A DNA stretch of 32,000 nt from Candidatus Saccharimonadota bacterium (GTDB lineage: Bacteria > Patescibacteriota > Saccharimonadia > Saccharimonadales > Saccharimonadaceae), in NCBI GenBank assembly GCA_000503915.1, contig CP006915.1, positions 510,001 through 542,000 on the forward strand, in the 5' to 3' direction. The notes under the pieces are model-generated. The model ran no database searches. It was given only the letters and a program-made list of their open reading frames with translations, and was not told the DNA's origin. This document shows, piece by piece, positions 148 through 30,110 of the stretch (its first letter is position 1; the number at the start of each line of letters is the position of its first letter). A program made the position numbers and the translations under genes.

Positions 148-744
148 TTATCTAAACAGCGGGCGATCAGAAATATCGCCCGTTTTTCTTACTTGCTCGG
201 CAATAACAGGACCAGGTTGAGAGGGCTCAAAGAGGTATTCGTACGCTGCGTGTGGTGCATCGGGCCTTTCCGGGTCAGGAGATGGACGCGGCACAACGCT
301 AGGCTGAGTAGTGTTTAGTTCGCGCACTGCTTCTTCGAAAGGTAAGTCTGCGTCAAGTGAGAGCTGAAGTGCATCGATAGTAAATTCGAGAGATTCCGGA
401 TGTGAGGCATGAAAAGCGGCGCTAAGAGCATTACGCACTAATTCAGAGCGTCGCTCGGGAACAAAATCTGAGGCATGCCCAAGCAGGGCAAGTGTATGCG
501 GGGTAATATCGTCCGGTTGTGATAATCCGAGAAGCTGCTCCGCTGTATTGAATATATCTCGCTTCACTTTACGGGGTATATGCCTCGTATTATCAAGCTC
601 AGCAGTAAGTTGCTTAAGTGTGCTGATGCCTGCCCCTACGCTAATAAGAGCTTGAGCTCCAGTCTTTCTATGGAGGGTGGGTAAGTCAAGTACAAGAGGC
701 TTTTCTAACCGATGTCTACCGTGTTCAAGCGCTTGTGTACTCAT
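148..744 (-). CDS. Hypothetical protein (198 aa), no recognisable family
   Basis: This is the only long ORF in the interval and its composition resembles its neighbours. It has a Pro/acidic-rich C-terminal third. I recognised no motif and saw no clear SD. Confidence 0.5.
   Translation of the reverse strand: MSTQALEHGRHRLEKPLVLDLPTLHRKTGAQALISVGAGISTLKQLTAELDNTRHIPRKVKRDIFNTAEQLLGLSQPDDITPHTLALLGHASDFVPERRSELVRNALSAAFHASHPESLEFTIDALQLSLDADLPFEEAVRELNTTQPSVVPRPSPDPERPDAPHAAYEYLFEPSQPGPVIAEQVRKTGDISDRPLFR
160..190 (+). terminator. Rho-independent terminator of greA
   Basis: An 8-bp stem pairs CGGGCGAT (160-167) with ATCGCCCG (175-182) around a 7-nt loop, followed by TTTTTCTT (183-190). It lies inside the last codons of the convergent minus-strand ORF 148-744. 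Confidence 0.7.
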
Positions 745-3508: not shown

Positions 3509-4804
3509 ATGTTAGATATCCGTTATATTCGGGAGAATGCCGACAAAGTCCAGGAGGTCGTTAAAAGTAAGGGCTATGACGTTTCGATCGCTGAGCTACT
3601 GAAACTCGATGATGAGCGCCGCAGTCTGCAGCAGCGAGTCGACGAACTGCGCGAAAAACGCAACACCAATGCAGCGAAGATGAAGGATGGTAGGCCGGAG
3701 CAATCACTGATTGACGAGGGTAAGCAGATTAAAATTGAACTTGCCGAGCGTGAGGGCTATTTGACCAACACTGATGCCAAGTTTGCTGAGCTTCTCAAGA
3801 GAGTTCCAAACATGCCGTGGAATGATGTACCGTTTGGTGCGAGTGAGGATGAAAATGTTGAAGTGAAAGTTGTGGGTGAAAAACCACAGTTTGATTTTAC
3901 GCCAAAAAACCATTATGAGATCGCTGAGGCTAAGGGCTGGCTCGACAAAGAGCGTGCCGCCAAAGTAGCTGGTGCTCGCTTTGCCTATGTGATGGGTGAT
4001 CTAGTGAAGCTGCAGCTGGCGATCGAGCACTTTGTGATAAACGCGCTCACCGATGAAGTTGTTTTGAAGAAGATCGCCGGAGAAGCGGGGCTAAGTGTCA
4101 GCACACGCCCATTTGTACCAGTATTGCCGCCGCTGATGATCCGCACCGAATCGTACGATCAGATGGATCGTCTCGAACCGCGCGACGATCGCTACAAGAT
4201 TGAAGGCGAAGAGTTGTGGCTGCAAGGTAGTGCGGAGCACGTCCTCGGCAGCATGCATGCCGGTGAAATTTTCGAAGCCGAGCAACTGCCACTTCGCTAT
4301 CTGGGTTTTGCCACCAGTTTCCGTAAAGAAGCGGGCACCTACGGTAAAGATATGGAAGGTCTCATCCGCATGCACCAGTTTGATAAATTGGAGATGGAGA
4401 GTTTCACGACAGGCGAGAAGAGTTTTGATGAACATCTGTTCTTTATCGCGATTCAAGAATATCTCTTACAACAACTTGGTTTGCCGTATCACGTGCTGAT
4501 GAAATGTACGGCTGACATCGGTAAGCCGAATGCCCGAGGTGTTGATATGGAGGTCTGGCTGCCGGGGCAGGGCAAGTACCGTGAGACGCATACGGCTGAC
4601 TATATGACCGATTACCAAGCGCGACGGCTGAATACGCGCGTGCGCACTGAAAATGGATTAGAGCTAATTCATACCAACGATGCAACGGCCTTTGCGCTGG
4701 GTCGTGCTATGGTTGCAATCATTGAAAACTACCAGACCGCCGAAGGGGATGTGCGTGTGCCAGAAGCGTTGCGACCATATCTTGCAGGCCGTGAGATTTT
4801 GTAA
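3509..4804 (+). CDS. serS: Seryl-tRNA synthetase
   Basis: 431 aa with an N-terminal coiled-coil arm and class II motifs (FRKEAGTYGKDMEGLIRMHQFDKLE; TNDATAFALGRAMVAIIENYQ). Confidence 0.95.
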   Translation: MLDIRYIRENADKVQEVVKSKGYDVSIAELLKLDDERRSLQQRVDELREKRNTNAAKMKDGRPEQSLIDEGKQIKIELAEREGYLTNTDAKFAELLKRVPNMPWNDVPFGASEDENVEVKVVGEKPQFDFTPKNHYEIAEAKGWLDKERAAKVAGARFAYVMGDLVKLQLAIEHFVINALTDEVVLKKIAGEAGLSVSTRPFVPVLPPLMIRTESYDQMDRLEPRDDRYKIEGEELWLQGSAEHVLGSMHAGEIFEAEQLPLRYLGFATSFRKEAGTYGKDMEGLIRMHQFDKLEMESFTTGEKSFDEHLFFIAIQEYLLQQLGLPYHVLMKCTADIGKPNARGVDMEVWLPGQGKYRETHTADYMTDYQARRLNTRVRTENGLELIHTNDATAFALGRAMVAIIENYQTAEGDVRVPEALRPYLAGREIL

Positions 4805-4849
4805 AAACATCTTCTAAAATTTCGATAGATTCAAAAACTTAGGTGATGT

Positions 4850-4889
4850 CCCGACCGGCACCGGAGGTTGAGGTCCAGTGCCGGTCGGG
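4850..4889. terminator. GC-rich perfect hairpin between convergent serS and the high-GC ORF
   Basis: CCCGACCGGCAC (4850-4861) pairs with GTGCCGGTCGGG (4878-4889), giving a 12-bp stem and a 16-nt loop. There is no clear U-tract on either side. GGTTGAGG occurs both in the loop and immediately 3' of the stem. Confidence 0.6.
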
Positions 4890-4896
4890 TTGAGGA

Positions 4897-5289
4897 TCAG
4901 TCGCGAGTCCTGAAGTACATCCACGTCGATCCGGCGAGGTAGTCGCTGGACGGCGCGTCGAACATGACGATCGCTCGGCCCGGGTACGAGTTGGCCGTGG
5001 CACGGGTGAGCTTGTCGAGCGGGAACTGGTAGTCCGTGTTCCAGCCCTCGCGGATCACCTCCACGTGTCCGCCACGCGGGTAGCGGAGCTCAGTCTTGAG
5101 CTCGTCGACCGCGAAGTTGACGATCGTGTTGCCACGCTCGTTGAAGTAGGCGATCACCTCCGTGCAGATGCCCGACTCGACCAGGAGGACGCTGTCCTTG
5201 AGGCCGAGATGGGGCTTGTTGTGCACGGTGACGTGCTTGCCGATGAGGGTGTTCGCGATGTTGCTGATCTTCTCGATGTTGCTGGTCAT
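4897..5289 (-). CDS. Hypothetical protein (130 aa) with Actinomycetota-like codon usage
   Basis: Only 9 of 130 sense codons end in A/T (hand count, GC3 about 93%). The SD GAGGAG lies 7 nt upstream of the ATG and an in-frame TGA lies 4 codons upstream. I recognised no family. The plus-strand ORFs 5065-5373 and 5162-5485 are high-GC shadows. Confidence 0.75.
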   Translation of the reverse strand: MTSNIEKISNIANTLIGKHVTVHNKPHLGLKDSVLLVESGICTEVIAYFNERGNTIVNFAVDELKTELRYPRGGHVEVIREGWNTDYQFPLDKLTRATANSYPGRAIVMFDAPSSDYLAGSTWMYFRTRD

Positions 5290-5386
5290 GATGACTCCTC
5301 AGAAGTTGATGTACGGGTTGCCCCGTACGCTTCTTCGGAGTACACGACCATGTACACGAACGGGAGTTTTTAGTCGATGGAAGTTA

Positions 5387-5431
5387 TTAGAACTCCATCG
5401 CCCGTCCGGACTTCCATGCGTACCAGTACAT
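5387..5431 (-). CDS. Candidate upstream/leader ORF, 14 aa (MYWYAWKSGRAMEF)
   Basis: The ATG at 5431 is preceded by AGGAGGTGAAGCCAG, and 12 of 14 codons end in G/C, like the downstream gene. It ends within an imperfect hairpin (5374-5398). Confidence 0.35.
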   Translation of the reverse strand: MYWYAWKSGRAMEF

Positions 5432-5471
5432 CTGGCTTCACCTCCTAGGGTAATCCCGCTGGAATTTTTAT

Positions 5472-5500
5472 ATTATAATGAATAAATATAAAAAAGTCAA
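5472..5500 (-). promoter_or_regulatory. Near-consensus sigma-70-type promoter TTGACT-N17-TATAAT pointing into the high-GC island
   Basis: On the minus strand the -35 TTGACT is plus 5495-5500 and the -10 TATAAT is plus 5472-5477, with a 17-nt spacer. The promoter lies in AT-rich, host-like sequence. Confidence 0.55.
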
Positions 5501-5520
5501 TAGTAAACCTAATTACGAGG

Positions 5521-5529
5521 TGCTATAAT
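5521..5529 (+). promoter_or_regulatory. Extended -10 (TGcTATAAT) for hpf
   Basis: TGCTATAAT is followed by a ~31-nt leader carrying the SD AAGGAGGG (5550-5557) before the ATG at 5561. Confidence 0.55.
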
Positions 5530-5560
5530 AGAAGTACCGAACCTAACAAAAGGAGGGTAC

Positions 5561-5935
5561 ATGATCCACTCTATCAGCCTAACGGGTGTTCATCTGGACA
5601 TCGACGCGCCGACGAAGAAATATGTACTGAAGAAAATAGGTCGTCTTGATCGGTTTCTGCCAAGACACGCGCGTAAAAGCGTCAGCGCAGAAGTGATTCT
5701 AAAAGAGGTGAACCGGGAGCACGGTAATAAATACGAAGCGGAAGTAATCCTCATCGTTCCCGACAAGCAGTTAACAGCCAAAGATTCCACCATGAATATG
5801 CTCGCCGCGGTTGATATCGTCGAGGCGAAACTAGCCAGTCAGCTACGCAAGTACAAAGACAAGAAGATGAGACACATTGGCAAGACGCGCGCGGCGCTCA
5901 GTCGCTTTAAGCGCAGCTACGCTCGCGAGCTTTAG
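5561..5935 (+). CDS. hpf: Ribosome hibernation promoting factor / RaiA family, short form (124 aa)
   Basis: The N-terminal pattern (I.ltG.hldid...k.Yv.kKi.rL.rf) is typical of the sigma-54 modulation/S30EA family. It has a strong SD and a terminator downstream. Confidence 0.8.
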   Translation: MIHSISLTGVHLDIDAPTKKYVLKKIGRLDRFLPRHARKSVSAEVILKEVNREHGNKYEAEVILIVPDKQLTAKDSTMNMLAAVDIVEAKLASQLRKYKDKKMRHIGKTRAALSRFKRSYAREL

Positions 5936-6051: not shown

Positions 6052-8679
<2,628 letters not shown>

Positions 8680-17748: not shown

Positions 17749-18480
17749 ATGACCGAACAAGGACCTCCAGAACGTATATATACTGATGCTGAAACTGATG
17801 AGCCTATTGTTCATCCTGCGGGTACGTTCGAGACTCATCCTACGGAACCAGGTAGGATCGGTTATACGCATGAGGGAGCCTCTGTGACAGCACTAGAACA
17901 TGAGGTAAAGGTAAAAGGCATTGGTGATACCGATCAGACAGGCGCGCCAGCTGTTCTTGGAGGCTCAGAGCAGGATTTAAGCCAGGAAGCATCCTCGGTA
18001 GAGGCAGAACTCGTCGACTTATCCGGCGATGTATTTTATAAGCGTTCCAATGGTGACATCGTTAAAGCGAAGGCTATGAAGGCGCCAGAATATAGCGACA
18101 AAGCATATATTGTAGTTTATACGATACAGGGGCAAACACTAAGCAGGCCTTTTGAAAAAGGAGAACTCGAAGCAATGCAGGTAGAAATTGCGAAGAGATT
18201 GGCGGACGGTGACACGGTTATTAGTGTAAAAACAGATAAGGAAGAGTCTGATCAATCAGATAGCGATAATCTTATCACTCATGTACCAGGAATGCCGCCA
18301 TACGAGGGTCATTTGCCAAGCCGGGAGGTTGTAACAATCCCAATCGAGGATTATAAGGGCGATCTAACACGCATAAAAGGTCATCCATCCAATCCAGCCT
18401 CACAAATGATGCAGGCATACTCAGACCATTTACGTACAGGTTCCGACGCAACAGCAAATGAGGAAGACTCTCAGAAGTAA
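17749..18480 (+). CDS. Hypothetical acidic protein (243 aa), probably largely disordered
   Basis: This is the only long ORF between a consensus promoter and a perfect hairpin. It is Asp/Glu/Ser/Thr/Pro-rich, with no signal peptide or TM segment and no family I recognised. Confidence 0.6.
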   Translation: MTEQGPPERIYTDAETDEPIVHPAGTFETHPTEPGRIGYTHEGASVTALEHEVKVKGIGDTDQTGAPAVLGGSEQDLSQEASSVEAELVDLSGDVFYKRSNGDIVKAKAMKAPEYSDKAYIVVYTIQGQTLSRPFEKGELEAMQVEIAKRLADGDTVISVKTDKEESDQSDSDNLITHVPGMPPYEGHLPSREVVTIPIEDYKGDLTRIKGHPSNPASQMMQAYSDHLRTGSDATANEEDSQK

Positions 18481-18883: not shown

Positions 18884-20044
18884 TTAGTGGCGTTTTAAAA
18901 TCAGTAGCTGTCGGGCGACAACTTGGTCTTCGCGGAAATAAGCAAGATGCCTTACATCAACATGCTGTAAGGGTTGAAATTCGTATCCCAGATTACCGAT
19001 ATTATCAATCAATGGCAGTTGCGTAAGACGCCCATTAGCGTCTCGCCAGGCGGGAACAGCTAGACAAAGCGGTGTACCCGGCTTGAGTTGAGAGTGAAGA
19101 TTCTTTAGGAAGCTGGTGATGATGTGATCACAGTTTCGTACAACTTCCTGTAGCTTTGCAGGTGAAGGAGGTGCCGAGAAGGGTTGGCCAAGGTATGTTT
19201 CACCCACGACACAATCAATCGGCTGTTGCCATTGGGTGGTAGTCGCATCACCTTCATGAAGGTACCAGTCGAAAGAGTTGTGACGGAAATCTTGAAGCCA
19301 GTTAAGGTTGTCGCGCGTATAGCGAATCATTTTTTCAGAGAGGTCGGTACCATAAACAGAGTATCCAAGAAGTGCCGCTTCTTGGAGTACAACGCCAGTT
19401 CCACAGAATGGGTCAAGGATACGACTTGTGCTAGAAGGATGAGCCATATTGATCATCATTAACGCTAGTTTTGGCGGTAGCATACCGACAAACGCATCAC
19501 GCTTTGGCCTCCCCTGGTCGCGGCGGGCAAGCGCGGTGATGTTTTGTGCGCCGGTGCTCTCGGCGATGACGACTTTATTCTTTCCGTAAGCAACGAGCAG
19601 TTCAATCTTATTATCTGATAGGCCGAGTTTGTTGTGGTGGGAAGTGGCGGTGCCAAGGATGGCGTCATCATTTGGGACGAGACGGAGGCTTCCATCGCGT
19701 GCTTTGGTGGCCTGTTTCAGCTTGAGGCCAGCCATCTGAATAGCTTTTGGCGAAACGTTTTCACCGTAGACGCTAATACCAAGGGTGATTTTTCCCGCTC
19801 GTTGTAAAAACGAGGCTGTGTAGTAATGAACAATTTCGTTGCTCAAGCTTTGCCAGTTTTGACGGGGAAACTCTGCCACGACCTGGCCAGCTTTCAGAAT
19901 GCCACCCAGTGTCTCGATAGAAAAATCATCGCTCGTCAGGAGCGCCACTTCGGGCGAAAAGGGCAGCACGGCGTCACTGCCGAAGCGCTGCTCCAGCTCA
20001 GCCAGGCTGAGTTCGGGCTGGCGCCCAAGTATACATAAGATCAT
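18884..20044 (-). CDS. Putative RNA (or DNA) methyltransferase, UPF0020/Trm11-RlmL-like class I SAM-dependent
   Basis: It has the SAM motif I ILDPFCGTGVVLQEAALLG preceded by LPPKLALMMINMA, as in the UPF0020 family. TATACT (plus 20051-20056) lies 6 nt before the ATG. Confidence 0.65.
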   Translation of the reverse strand: MILCILGRQPELSLAELEQRFGSDAVLPFSPEVALLTSDDFSIETLGGILKAGQVVAEFPRQNWQSLSNEIVHYYTASFLQRAGKITLGISVYGENVSPKAIQMAGLKLKQATKARDGSLRLVPNDDAILGTATSHHNKLGLSDNKIELLVAYGKNKVVIAESTGAQNITALARRDQGRPKRDAFVGMLPPKLALMMINMAHPSSTSRILDPFCGTGVVLQEAALLGYSVYGTDLSEKMIRYTRDNLNWLQDFRHNSFDWYLHEGDATTTQWQQPIDCVVGETYLGQPFSAPPSPAKLQEVVRNCDHIITSFLKNLHSQLKPGTPLCLAVPAWRDANGRLTQLPLIDNIGNLGYEFQPLQHVDVRHLAYFREDQVVARQLLILKRH

Positions 20045-27624: not shown

Positions 27625-28194
27625 ATGCAACCTACGCTACATTCCTGGAATGGTGTGCTGTGGCGAATCAAGAATAGCGAGGTTGCATTCGCACACTGTC
27701 CAACACACCAGGGCATACAACTCGATATCTTAAGTAACGACGGTCGCCCTGTCGATCAAGCAAGAATGAAATATATCTTGAGTAGTACTCGTTTTGTGTG
27801 CCCAATGGATAATAAAATGTTTAGTATTGAGAACGACTATTTTACTTTAAGACGAAGAGTGATAGCAATTACGAAGTCTGAGGCATATAAGGATGCGAAG
27901 ATTATAGATATAGATAACATATACACACCTATTCTAAGAGTTGCACCGAAGCCTAAAGATGATAGGTACTCTGTCCAGGTTGAGATTGACGAGACACCTA
28001 ATGGAAAAAAGCTTGTTATTTATGCTATAGATCGTAAAAATCCTGATGAGAAAACTCAGATTTTTATAGACCCACAGTTTGATAAGATCAGCTTCGATGG
28101 GAGAGGCGACCTACACCCAAATATGATATTTTCCAAAGTAATCGCATACTTTAAGGACGAAAAAAAGGCCACCCTAGAGAGGAAGGAAGACTGA
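27625..28194 (+). CDS. Hypothetical protein (189 aa), AT-rich gene
   Basis: It starts 4 nt after the glyQS stop, with GAGGAA upstream. It contains two CP-x-[HD] pairs (HCPTH, VCPMD) that could form a small metal-binding knuckle. I recognised no family. Confidence 0.55.
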   Translation: MQPTLHSWNGVLWRIKNSEVAFAHCPTHQGIQLDILSNDGRPVDQARMKYILSSTRFVCPMDNKMFSIENDYFTLRRRVIAITKSEAYKDAKIIDIDNIYTPILRVAPKPKDDRYSVQVEIDETPNGKKLVIYAIDRKNPDEKTQIFIDPQFDKISFDGRGDLHPNMIFSKVIAYFKDEKKATLERKED

Positions 28195-28583: not shown

Positions 28584-28910
28584 ATGGATATTGAATACAA
28601 CTTCTCAGGTTCTATAAAAGTTACGTTAGACTACTCTGATCTTTCAATGATTCAGTCACATGGCTATGCGGTTGAACGCGAAGGTTTTGCCGGCATTGAA
28701 AACAAAACGTGGGTTCGGCTAGGTCATAATAGAGACCCTATGGCGATCATCGATGACGATGGTGATCTGAACGTTTGGATACCACGTGATGTAGTCTCTC
28801 CAGTTGAGATTCCTCGCAAAAGTATCCATGCCAGTAGTAGCGCTCTTGGGGATATTGTTGAACATTACCTTGGTGAAGACGGTAACGTGACAGTGGATTG
28901 GCCAAGTTAA
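28584..28910 (+). CDS. Hypothetical protein (108 aa)
   Basis: It starts 5 nt after the RidA-family gene with GAGGTAG upstream, and is the third gene of an apparent operon. I recognised no family. Confidence 0.5.
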   Translation: MDIEYNFSGSIKVTLDYSDLSMIQSHGYAVEREGFAGIENKTWVRLGHNRDPMAIIDDDGDLNVWIPRDVVSPVEIPRKSIHASSSALGDIVEHYLGEDGNVTVDWPS

Positions 28911-29483: not shown

Positions 29484-30110
29484 ATGTCGATAGATTCATT
29501 TCCTATTGTAGGTGCTGGTTCCTACACCGAGCTTAGCTATGATGATTTGGCAGTGCGGTATCAGCAAGGCGACCCTCAAGCTCTCGAGGAGGTTTGTACA
29601 CGTCAATATAGAAGAATTGAGGGCATACTTATTCATAACGGGGTTGATTCACAGGATGTTGCTGATGTAGCTCAGCAAGTAGTAGAAAAGATGATAGGAG
29701 CGCTAGATAAGTTTGAGCCGGGCGGATTTAACGCCTGGGTGGGAAGGATTGCTCACAACTGTGCCATGGATTATCATCGCAGGAATAGGCATAGGAAATC
29801 GAAAATTCTTAATTGTGACGGTGAGATTGCGGATCAGATAGTGGAATCGCATAATGAGATCGAAGACCTCAATGCGATCTGGATAGTGGACGATATTATC
29901 GATCAATTGAGAGAATTTGATGGAGCGGGTTTTGATTCAAAGGATCTCGGTGAAATATTGAAGCGTTTAGCTCTCGGTGAGAAAAATATTGAGATTGCTG
30001 AAGATATGGGACTGAACCACCTCACAGTTGCAACACGTATTTCGCGTTTGAGAGCTCGTCTAGCGAAAGCATCTTTCACGCGTGAGTCTGTCGATCGCCT
30101 GATACAATAG
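29484..30110 (+). CDS. Sigma-70 family RNA polymerase sigma factor, ECF-like (208 aa)
   Basis: Region 2 is recognisable (FNAWVGRIAHNCAMDYHRRNR), as is the region 4 HTH (GEKNIEIAEDMGLNHLTVATRISRLRARL). They are separated by an acidic linker. Confidence 0.8.
   Translation: MSIDSFPIVGAGSYTELSYDDLAVRYQQGDPQALEEVCTRQYRRIEGILIHNGVDSQDVADVAQQVVEKMIGALDKFEPGGFNAWVGRIAHNCAMDYHRRNRHRKSKILNCDGEIADQIVESHNEIEDLNAIWIVDDIIDQLREFDGAGFDSKDLGEILKRLALGEKNIEIAEDMGLNHLTVATRISRLRARLAKASFTRESVDRLIQ

Follow-up and report, generated by a model that had tools for sequence, protein, structure and literature searches.

A minus-strand open reading frame (ORF) of 130 codons lies between serS and hpf in a 32,000-nt stretch (the window) of the genome of Candidatus Saccharibacteria bacterium RAAC3_TM7_1 (contig CP006915.1, positions 510,001 to 542,000). 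We call this ORF (4897-5289) and its homologues X, and use numbers of the form Lnnn for homologous loci and comparison contigs. The product is 100% identical to RAAC3_TM7C00001G0577. Overall, X is best explained as the gene of a self-contained accessory cassette of ~0.7 kb that is specific to Saccharibacteria and is not actinobacterial DNA, a reading to which we assign a probability of about 0.5. That the cassette is mobile within Saccharibacteria and was inserted at this locus is, taken by itself, highly likely, and the extreme G+C content at its third codon positions (GC3) is quite probably a selected trait of the X family and not the signature of a donor. An earlier note on this DNA had correctly placed the genome among the Saccharibacteria and had proposed that X was a recently captured gene of an Actinomycetota host. 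That proposal is weighed below with the other alternatives.

Insertion and horizontal exchange of the cassette

In two sister genomes (L140 and L141, SerS 86-87% identical to that of the window) serS is followed by hpf-secA-M16 without X, and the serS-hpf gaps are 36 and 109 nt. Since serS stands directly before hpf in these sisters, the span ~4805-5520 of the window is an insertion. It matches exactly the extent of the cassette from its promoter to its second 3' hairpin (Table 1), and the description of a single-gene island in the earlier note was therefore correct. The promoter and 5' untranslated region (UTR) of hpf (GTGCTATAATAGARGTAC / GTGCTATAAT...AAAAGGAGGGTAC) are common to the sisters and to window positions 5520-5560. 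SerS clusters at 79-94% identity number more than 120 in the database, against 11 X clusters overall. X is rare and patchy even inside its own lineage.

The end of serS carries a further trace of the event. Over its last ~53 nt (4752-4804) identity to the sisters falls from 72-78% to 49% (Fisher p = 3e-4 and 6e-3), and identity to the distant X-carrier L005 climbs from 56% to 68%, a rise that is not significant alone. The SerS C-terminus reads ..AGREIL in the window and ..GGREVL in L005, and ..GGKKVL and ..GGKSLL in the sisters. This mosaic tail of ~17 codons suggests that the cassette came by homologous recombination and that the serS tail was co-transferred. The hpf promoter and 5' UTR are strongly conserved across the window and the sister genomes. 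In L140 (5285-5335) the -10 box of this promoter (GTGCTATAAT) overlaps the final serS codons and the stop codon. About 20 nt separate the back-to-back promoters of X and hpf in the window. We had considered the window hpf promoter as a relative of the inter-cassette repeat described below. This candidate was dropped, as the sisters show a plain conserved hpf promoter.

The family is small. Clustering at 90% identity gives 11 X clusters in a set of 5.8 billion proteins, and an exhaustive scan of 1.84 billion representatives gives 4 at 50% identity. When 185,579 species genomes were scanned with a profile as guide, three proved to carry a relative: two named Saccharibacteria/Saccharimonadales metagenome-assembled genomes (MAGs) and one 'uncultured bacterium'. 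None of these three collections held a homologue outside the X family, and phage, plasmid and IMG/VR collections gave no match. Relatives with visible flanks lie on contigs of ~47-53% G+C among Saccharibacteria-type neighbours, and X was found in at least four distinct genomic contexts. The homologues are 128-131 amino acids long, and the Shine-Dalgarno sequence (SD), start and length are conserved.

The history of X departs from that of the genomes in both directions. The X proteins of the window and L005 are 85% identical, with a synonymous divergence (dS) of 0.13 and a third-position identity of 0.90, while SerS (52-53%), encoded next to X, and LysS (64%) have diverged far more and their dS is saturated. 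Conversely, L006 and L013 are 81% identical in M50 and 79-83% in L28, yet their X proteins at the same locus share 52-53%. Synonymous sites are saturated even between the window and its sister genomes. The third-position identity of 0.90 therefore points to a recent common ancestry of the cassette, that is, to horizontal exchange. On these sequence comparisons X passes horizontally among deeply diverged Saccharibacteria, and its history is decoupled from that of its genomes. Within sublineages synteny is kept: the order M50-X-L28 recurs in L006 and L012-14, and a NUDIX-family gene stands upstream of X in L001 and L007.

At three loci (L001:7289-12419, L007:578-2570 and L018:121-2930) X belongs to an array of small accessory genes, which include a 2'-5' RNA ligase, a Ser hydrolase, TauE, NUDIX, LMWPc, an AAA kinase, GATase and small membrane proteins. 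A repeat of ~32 nt (AAGTTCGAAGTACGTCCAnTAGGGGCACCAAG) follows each array gene, always in a single orientation. The gene content of the arrays varies among related genomes, and they lie upstream of a conserved block of PAS-HisKA, response-regulator and Zn-peptidase genes. In L019, a Saccharibacteria MAG, a different direct repeat of ~39 nt (TTTCGAGCRAGCGGAGAAGGCTTYAGSCGCKATCCCTCC, at 5706-5745 and 6502-6541) brackets the X cassette and may be a duplicated recombination site. A sequence related to TTTCGAGCRAGCGGAGAAGGCTTYAGSCGCKATCCCTCC occurs upstream of X in L007 (~743-780). Neither the ~32-nt repeat nor a direct repeat of the L019 type is present in the window.

Third codon positions of X

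The G+C content of X at first, second and third codon positions (GC1, GC2 and GC3) is 0.53, 0.40 and 0.93, and exactly 9 of its sense codons end in A or T. All other window ORFs of at least 100 amino acids have a GC3 of 0.33-0.63, and among those of at least 80 amino acids the second-highest value after X is 0.68. In 300-nt windows the G+C content was 0.59-0.64 across the X ORF, with a peak of 0.64, against 0.43-0.44 upstream. The earlier note had reported a GC-rich island, nine A/T-ending sense codons, mixed third positions in the neighbouring genes, and serS and hpf as the neighbours. All four observations held on recounting, the last by Pfam.

The bias is a property of the family. GC3 was 0.87-0.95 in 12/12 distinct X copies, which span 38-100% protein identity, and X is the highest-GC3 ORF of its contig at every locus. 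In deep X pairs identical residues use the same codon at a frequency of 0.64-0.75, against 0.67 expected from family codon usage alone. Synonymous sites have therefore fully turned over while GC3 was held at ~0.9. A copy with ameliorated, lowered GC3 was found nowhere among the 12, though the deep branches are saturated at synonymous sites. The third base is C in ~0.6 and G in ~0.3 of the codons of the family. Two-fold boxes are 94-100% C- or G-ending (Lys is AAG in 59/59 cases and never AAA), CTC is used far above CTG for Leu, and AGG accounts for 19% of the codons for Arg and CCT for 22% of those for Pro.

The rest of the cassette and the rest of the codon do not share this composition. The promoter together with the stretch before the SD has 23-32% G+C, and the second 3' hairpin 23-42%. 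Of 134 ORFs from GC-rich contigs that have a GC3 of 0.87-0.97, not one was as low as X in both GC1 and GC2; this reference set, drawn from the contigs of a metagenome scan with a leader 16-mer (below), is rough and includes some spurious frames. On the contigs that carry X, genes for ribosomal proteins, IF3, hpf, ClpB and HSP20 reach a GC3 of only ~0.5-0.68.

Because GC3 has outlasted synonymous turnover in genomes of ~50% G+C, and because the non-coding parts are AT-rich and the amino-acid composition is native-like, the third positions of the X ORF are best read as being specifically under selection. A donor footprint, a high-GC reservoir, a local mutational bias and GC-biased gene conversion are all made unlikely by a bias that ends at the ORF edges and spares GC1 and GC2. 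Ordinary translational selection is unlikely because ribosomal-protein and similar genes fall so far short of X. We know of no established explanation for a lasting third-position-only G/C bias in a mid-GC lineage with reduced genomes, and searches of the literature on Saccharibacteria with GC3, horizontal gene transfer (HGT) or integrons found no relevant description of one.

Selection might also act on translation for reasons unrelated to mRNA folding. The codons could avoid an mRNA interferase, a ribosome-dependent enzyme that targets A/U-ending codons, or they could suit a subset of tRNAs available in starvation. In the most exotic form they would match the tRNA pool of the high-GC host, in which the gene would then be expressed. 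A strictly third-position bias confined to the ORF, and two-fold boxes as uniform as those above, agree with such an explanation, as does the tight translational gating that is predicted for X. X also stands beside hpf in the window, which may be coincidence. We nevertheless consider this explanation unlikely. Native highly expressed genes lack any such preference, the charging argument does not apply to NNY boxes that are read by a single tRNA, and neither a toxin partner nor a transfer signal was identified. Furthermore, X has an AT-rich sigma-70 promoter like those of the epibiont itself.

Quite improbable, in our judgement, is a family that diversifies in an unsampled high-GC reservoir (a plasmid, a phage or a rare organism), from which each copy arrived separately and recently. 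This would account for an X phylogeny decoupled from the genome backbone, for the many insertion contexts and for the want of ameliorated copies. However, the conserved parts that travel with X (its promoter, some of the leader and hairpin 2) are AT-rich, as they would not have stayed in a high-GC background, and GC1 and GC2 are unshifted. The phage, plasmid and IMG/VR collections were empty of X, and the synteny kept within sublineages argues for residence over constant re-arrival.

GC-biased gene conversion, by which the cassette would be a recombination hotspot and repeated conversion would push its third positions to G/C, is very improbable. Recombination and allele exchange are clear, the conserved cassette ends could serve as homology arms, and Saccharibacteria are naturally competent. 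Such conversion would however have to stop at the ORF edges, and hairpin 2, ~9-50 nt past the stop codon, evolves by A-U/U-A and G.U swaps at its low G+C content. The protein is weakly constrained, yet its gene shows no rise in GC1 or GC2. A shift as large as 0.93 against 0.55 also far exceeds, to our knowledge, what has been reported for biased conversion in bacteria.

We give very little credence to the suggestion of the earlier note that X was recently captured from an Actinomycetota host, its GC3 being the still unameliorated signature of this high-GC donor. The GC3 of 0.93 and the exclusively G/C-ending two-fold codons do resemble high-GC usage, X is missing from the same locus in L140 and L141, and the hosts of Saccharibacteria are Actinomycetota. 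By the conditions that the note itself set, the proposal fails: the searches found no homologue in Actinomycetota or anywhere beyond the X family. It fails likewise on the family-wide GC3, which relatives in Saccharibacteria-type contigs retain despite synonymous saturation. It also fails on the native-like GC1 and GC2 and on the AT-rich non-coding parts, the promoter and second hairpin having been transferred with the gene. The amelioration expected of older copies was not seen in any of the 12, and the preference for CTC over CTG and the shares of AGG and CCT are atypical of Streptomyces-type usage. A different link to the host, in which the third positions are tuned to the tRNA pool of the high-GC actinobacterial host because host cells receive and translate the cassette (as DNA or RNA) or its message, and X is an epibiont effector, would be hardly credible.

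Leader, 3' hairpins and the X message

Upstream of X the promoter TTGACT-N17-TATAAT agrees with 11/12 consensus positions. At homologous loci a promoter stands at the same position (TTGACA-N17-(TG)CTAnnAT), its hexamers conserved and its spacer not. The transcript it would give begins with a leader whose minimum free energy (MFE) in the window is -77.3 kcal/mol (z = -5.85 against shuffles). The near-consensus promoter, the GAGGAG SD of X and the structured leader had each been noticed in the earlier reading of the sequence and are sustained here. In distant pairs the leader is 76-88% and the hairpin region 77-96% identical at the nucleotide level, against 65-73% for the coding sequence (CDS), or 67-73% between the loci of the leader comparison. 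The leader of L006 is exceptional (59-64%). In L015 the protein is 38-39% identical to window X and the UTRs are near-identical.

An upstream open reading frame (uORF) of 11-18 codons with its own SD and the start M-x-W-[KRT]-x-G was present in 9/9 fully readable leaders. Examples of its peptide are MAWKSGRAMERHI, MSWKSGRAMEF, MCWKPGRGGLERLP and MTWTSGRGFWAGVRICCA, and the window uORF encodes MYWYAWKSGRAMEF. The window copy carries an in-frame insertion of 9 nt (TAC TGG TAC), so that its peptide begins MYWY-AWKSG... where others have MAWKSG.... Downstream of the uORF, a long and very stable hairpin is predicted to mask the SD and start codon of X. In the window ACUCC pairs with the SD GAGGAG and GGUCGUG with the start region CAUGACC. 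In the family ACUYC lies opposite the GAGGAG SD and GGUCAG opposite the AUGACC start region. This mask was predicted in the MFE structure of 9/9 leaders, and 98% of the cells of the aligned helix were pairing-competent, against 23-68% in slid controls.

The 3' UTR holds two hairpins. Hairpin 1 was 99.4% paired across 11 loci, with compensatory double changes at 3 pairs, and hairpin 2 was 90% paired, with such changes at 8 pairs. Taken together, 94.5% of cells were paired against 24-45% in slid controls, 11 pairs were double-compensated, and the observed covariation was reached by 0/500 shuffles. The U.G pairs of the hairpins are compatible with the sense RNA only. Hairpin 1 had been described in the earlier note as a perfect stem of 12 bp; the hairpin exists, and its stem is in fact 16 bp long and includes one U.G pair. 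A scan for intrinsic terminators found none. Hairpin 1 lacks an adjacent U-tract, and the AU-rich hairpin 2 is followed by U5 in the window copy only.

Several other RNA elements were tried and rejected. A riboswitch like guanidine-III/ykkC, suggested by CCGGACG...GGUCAGG motifs, had no Rfam match even at E<=10. Rfam gave no match at gathering score in the window and nothing relevant at E<=10 over the cassette and three other loci. A four-segment erm-like switch (R0-R3) found no thermodynamic support, although L015 and L006 have co-changes that look suggestive by eye. Pairing between the 5' and 3' UTRs and motifs in the 3' UTR resembling an anti-SD were not conserved across loci. The leader 16-mer TGGAAGYCCGGACGGG, used to scan metagenomes, led to no true leader; its 120 matches, in GC-rich contigs, were due to chance. 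The leader, with its uORF and its mask over SD and AUG, and the covariation-supported 3' UTR are previously undescribed.

We also weighed a gene or RNA on the opposite strand (for example the plus-strand ORF 5065-5373) as the constraint on the third positions of X. It is nearly negligible: the codon-aligned antisense frame is stop-free in 9/12 copies, but this openness follows by construction from the rarity of A-ending codons, 3/12 copies have a stop codon in the frame, its translation is typical low-complexity 'shadow' sequence, the sense protein folds confidently in AlphaFold2 (AF2), and no antisense promoter lies inside the cassette. The only other promoter-like site, a weak plus-strand one (GTGAGA-18-TAAAAT, 9/12), stands at the serS-side edge (4791-4820), directed antisense into the X 3' UTR, and is probably a chance match.

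If selection does act on the third positions of X, its reason might lie in the compaction or stability of the mRNA, a suggestion that we hold tentatively and regard as doubtful. By this mechanism the X mRNA would persist as a compact transcript, resistant to nucleases and to Rho and translationally silent. Untranslated RNA would face Rho and endonucleases specific for AU-rich sequence, and G/C-ending codons would give the body of the ORF a compact structure. The uORF and leader would gate X translation and open on some signal, likely by co-transcriptional or ribosome-dependent refolding. In most copies a CUGACC segment follows the uORF stop; it could draw the masking GGUCAG away from the start codon and so form a switch that depends on kinetics or on ribosome position. 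In 11/11 copies the fold of the X CDS was more stable than those of shuffles of its synonymous codons, with modest z-scores (-0.7 to -3.3) among related sequences that are not independent tests, and the compaction idea is in line with this.

Apart from the high-GC reservoir and the modesty of these folding scores, a number of points count against the account given here. The step from GC3 to mRNA compaction or stability is one that we infer. The masking helix is nearly invariant, with one double compensatory change, and so rests on conservation and not on covariation. When the uORF was forced single-stranded in silico the SD stayed masked (probability of being unpaired 0.33 before and after), and a simple thermodynamic switch of the erm type is therefore unsupported. 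The CUGACC segment is missing from the window leader, and regulatory details in the window genome may differ from those of other copies. The family is tiny, and generalisations from 12 distinct copies lean on few lineages. Finally, the dN/dS of X (0.3-0.9) is inflated by a dS that codon bias suppresses and is hence hard to interpret. Together with the mosaicism of alleles it indicates, at the level of sequence, that the protein evolves fast. Fast mosaic evolution and a patchy distribution would fit an accessory role, for example in conflict or host interaction.

Table 1. Features of the X cassette and the adjoining end of serS, in window coordinates.
Feature	Position	Strand	Remarks
Inserted cassette	4805-5520 (~716 bp)		Just past serS stop codon to just before hpf -10 box; from sister-genome comparison
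Promoter	5472-5500	minus	-35 TTGACT 5500-5495, 17-nt spacer, -10 TATAAT 5477-5472
5' leader (~175 nt)	5290-5465	minus	Highly structured
uORF MYWYAWKSGRAMEF*	5387-5431	minus	Own strong SD AGGAGG 5446-5441
Long masking hairpin	5284-5349	minus	Predicted to cover SD GAGGAG 5300-5295 and start codon region
X CDS (130 aa)	4897-5289	minus	GC3 0.93; predicted N-terminal helix and 7 long beta strands
3' hairpin 1	4850-4889	minus	16-bp GC-rich stem, one U.G pair, 8-nt loop
3' hairpin 2	4808-4848	minus	17-bp AU-rich stem, then U5 at 4807-4803 abutting serS stop codon
serS tail (last ~53 nt)	4752-4804	plus	Possible recombination tail arriving with cassette

The X protein and comparison with known systems

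Searches of Pfam, PHROGs, NCBIfam and PADLOC placed X in no family, in keeping with the earlier note, which had recognised none. With an alignment of 9 close sequences the AF2 model was unusable (predicted local distance difference test, pLDDT, 36). The addition of two distant members gave a pLDDT of 87.6 and a predicted template modelling score of 0.79 on the resulting 11-sequence alignment. In it, residues 2-15 form an N-terminal helix, and a beta-sheet is built of seven long antiparallel strands. A Foldseek comparison with PDB and BFVD returned nothing at E<=1e-3, with a best template modelling (TM) score of 0.38, and the top matches were loosely calycin-like, nitrobindin-like and hot-dog-like. 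The best match of a PDB profile search was RsfS at E=1, which is insignificant, and identity with RsfS was rejected, Pfam giving no RsfS match. X is, as modelled, an orphan small beta-rich protein, confidently predicted and without detectable relatives beyond its family.

Two giant repeat proteins, P0012 (3420 aa) and P0013 (1024 aa), were judged probably spurious as homologues, since their scores sum a short GST.V.Y/F motif over 8-11 repeats. They score on the C-terminal ~45 residues of X through 'F/Y..GST.V.Y/F', and P0013 resembles a hyalin-repeat (HYR-type) array. The motif may mark a beta-hairpin element shared by the three proteins.

By analogy, the cassette would work most like the inducible genes controlled by leader peptides of the erm/cat type, which it resembles in part only. 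As in the ermC, ermB, cat and cmlA attenuators, a short uORF with its own strong SD precedes a stable hairpin in which the SD and start codon of the regulated gene are hidden, and leader and gene travel as a unit on mobile DNA. Unlike them, X has a uORF peptide (M-x-W-K-x-G-R...) unrelated to known leaders, its SD stays masked when the uORF is covered in silico, and X is not a recognisable resistance enzyme. The compact, long-lived and translationally inert mRNAs of hok/mok/sok type I toxins, to which the likeness is again partial, are likewise highly folded, with a buried main ribosome-binding site, an upstream frame with an SD and terminal hairpins, and they too belong to small, patchy, mobile and selfish-looking cassettes. 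X is however predicted to be a soluble beta-rich protein of 130 amino acids and not a small membrane peptide, its uORF does not overlap the main ORF, and no internal antisense promoter or RNA was detected in the cassette.

X resembles the islets of atypical composition left by recent HGT in being a single-gene insertion with deviant GC3 that is absent from sisters. It differs in that the deviation is unameliorated, family-wide at saturated divergence and limited to third positions. The arrays of L001, L007 and L018 recall integrons, with X as one unit among variable gene content separated by a repeat in one orientation. Yet by eye, no attC model having been run, the ~32-nt repeat has neither an attC-like imperfect palindrome nor a GTTRRRY core. 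X also has its own conserved promoter, no integrase was seen among the annotated neighbours, and the window lacks the repeat. Small beta-barrel and hot-dog-like binders (calycin, nitrobindin, the erythrocruorin-linker barrel) share with X a helix and long antiparallel strands and head the Foldseek list, but with TM scores of at most 0.38-0.44, no match at E<=1e-3 and no sequence signal, membership is unsupported. The X cassette is neither a known riboswitch nor a canonical terminator nor an integron cassette, and its protein belongs to no known family or fold.

Elsewhere in the window five ORFs deviate in the opposite direction, with GC3 of 0.37-0.40 against a window median of 0.54: 148-744(-), 17749-18480(+), 27625-28194(+), 28584-28910(+) and 29484-30110(+). 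The first two have no Pfam match. These ORFs may be AT-rich acquired or fast-evolving genes. The orphan at 17749-18480 adjoins a gene with the DNA/RNA methyltransferase domains UPF0020 and N6_N4_Mtase (18884-20044(-)), perhaps what is left of a restriction-modification system or of another mobile element.

Genes of outlying composition are routinely taken for recent HGT from a donor of matching G+C content, and X is a mobile counter-example for methods of HGT detection. It points to strong selection at the level of mRNA or codons in ultra-small epibionts, and its leader, 3' UTR and orphan fold add to a phylum with very few characterised accessory genes. Saccharibacteria are now transformable, and reporter tests are possible. 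If the mRNA-compaction reading is true, direct selection on a stored, translationally masked mRNA would keep the synonymous sites of X at ~90% G/C, a case not documented before for a gene family of an epibiont with a reduced genome, and a GC3 outlier would then not need to imply a foreign origin.

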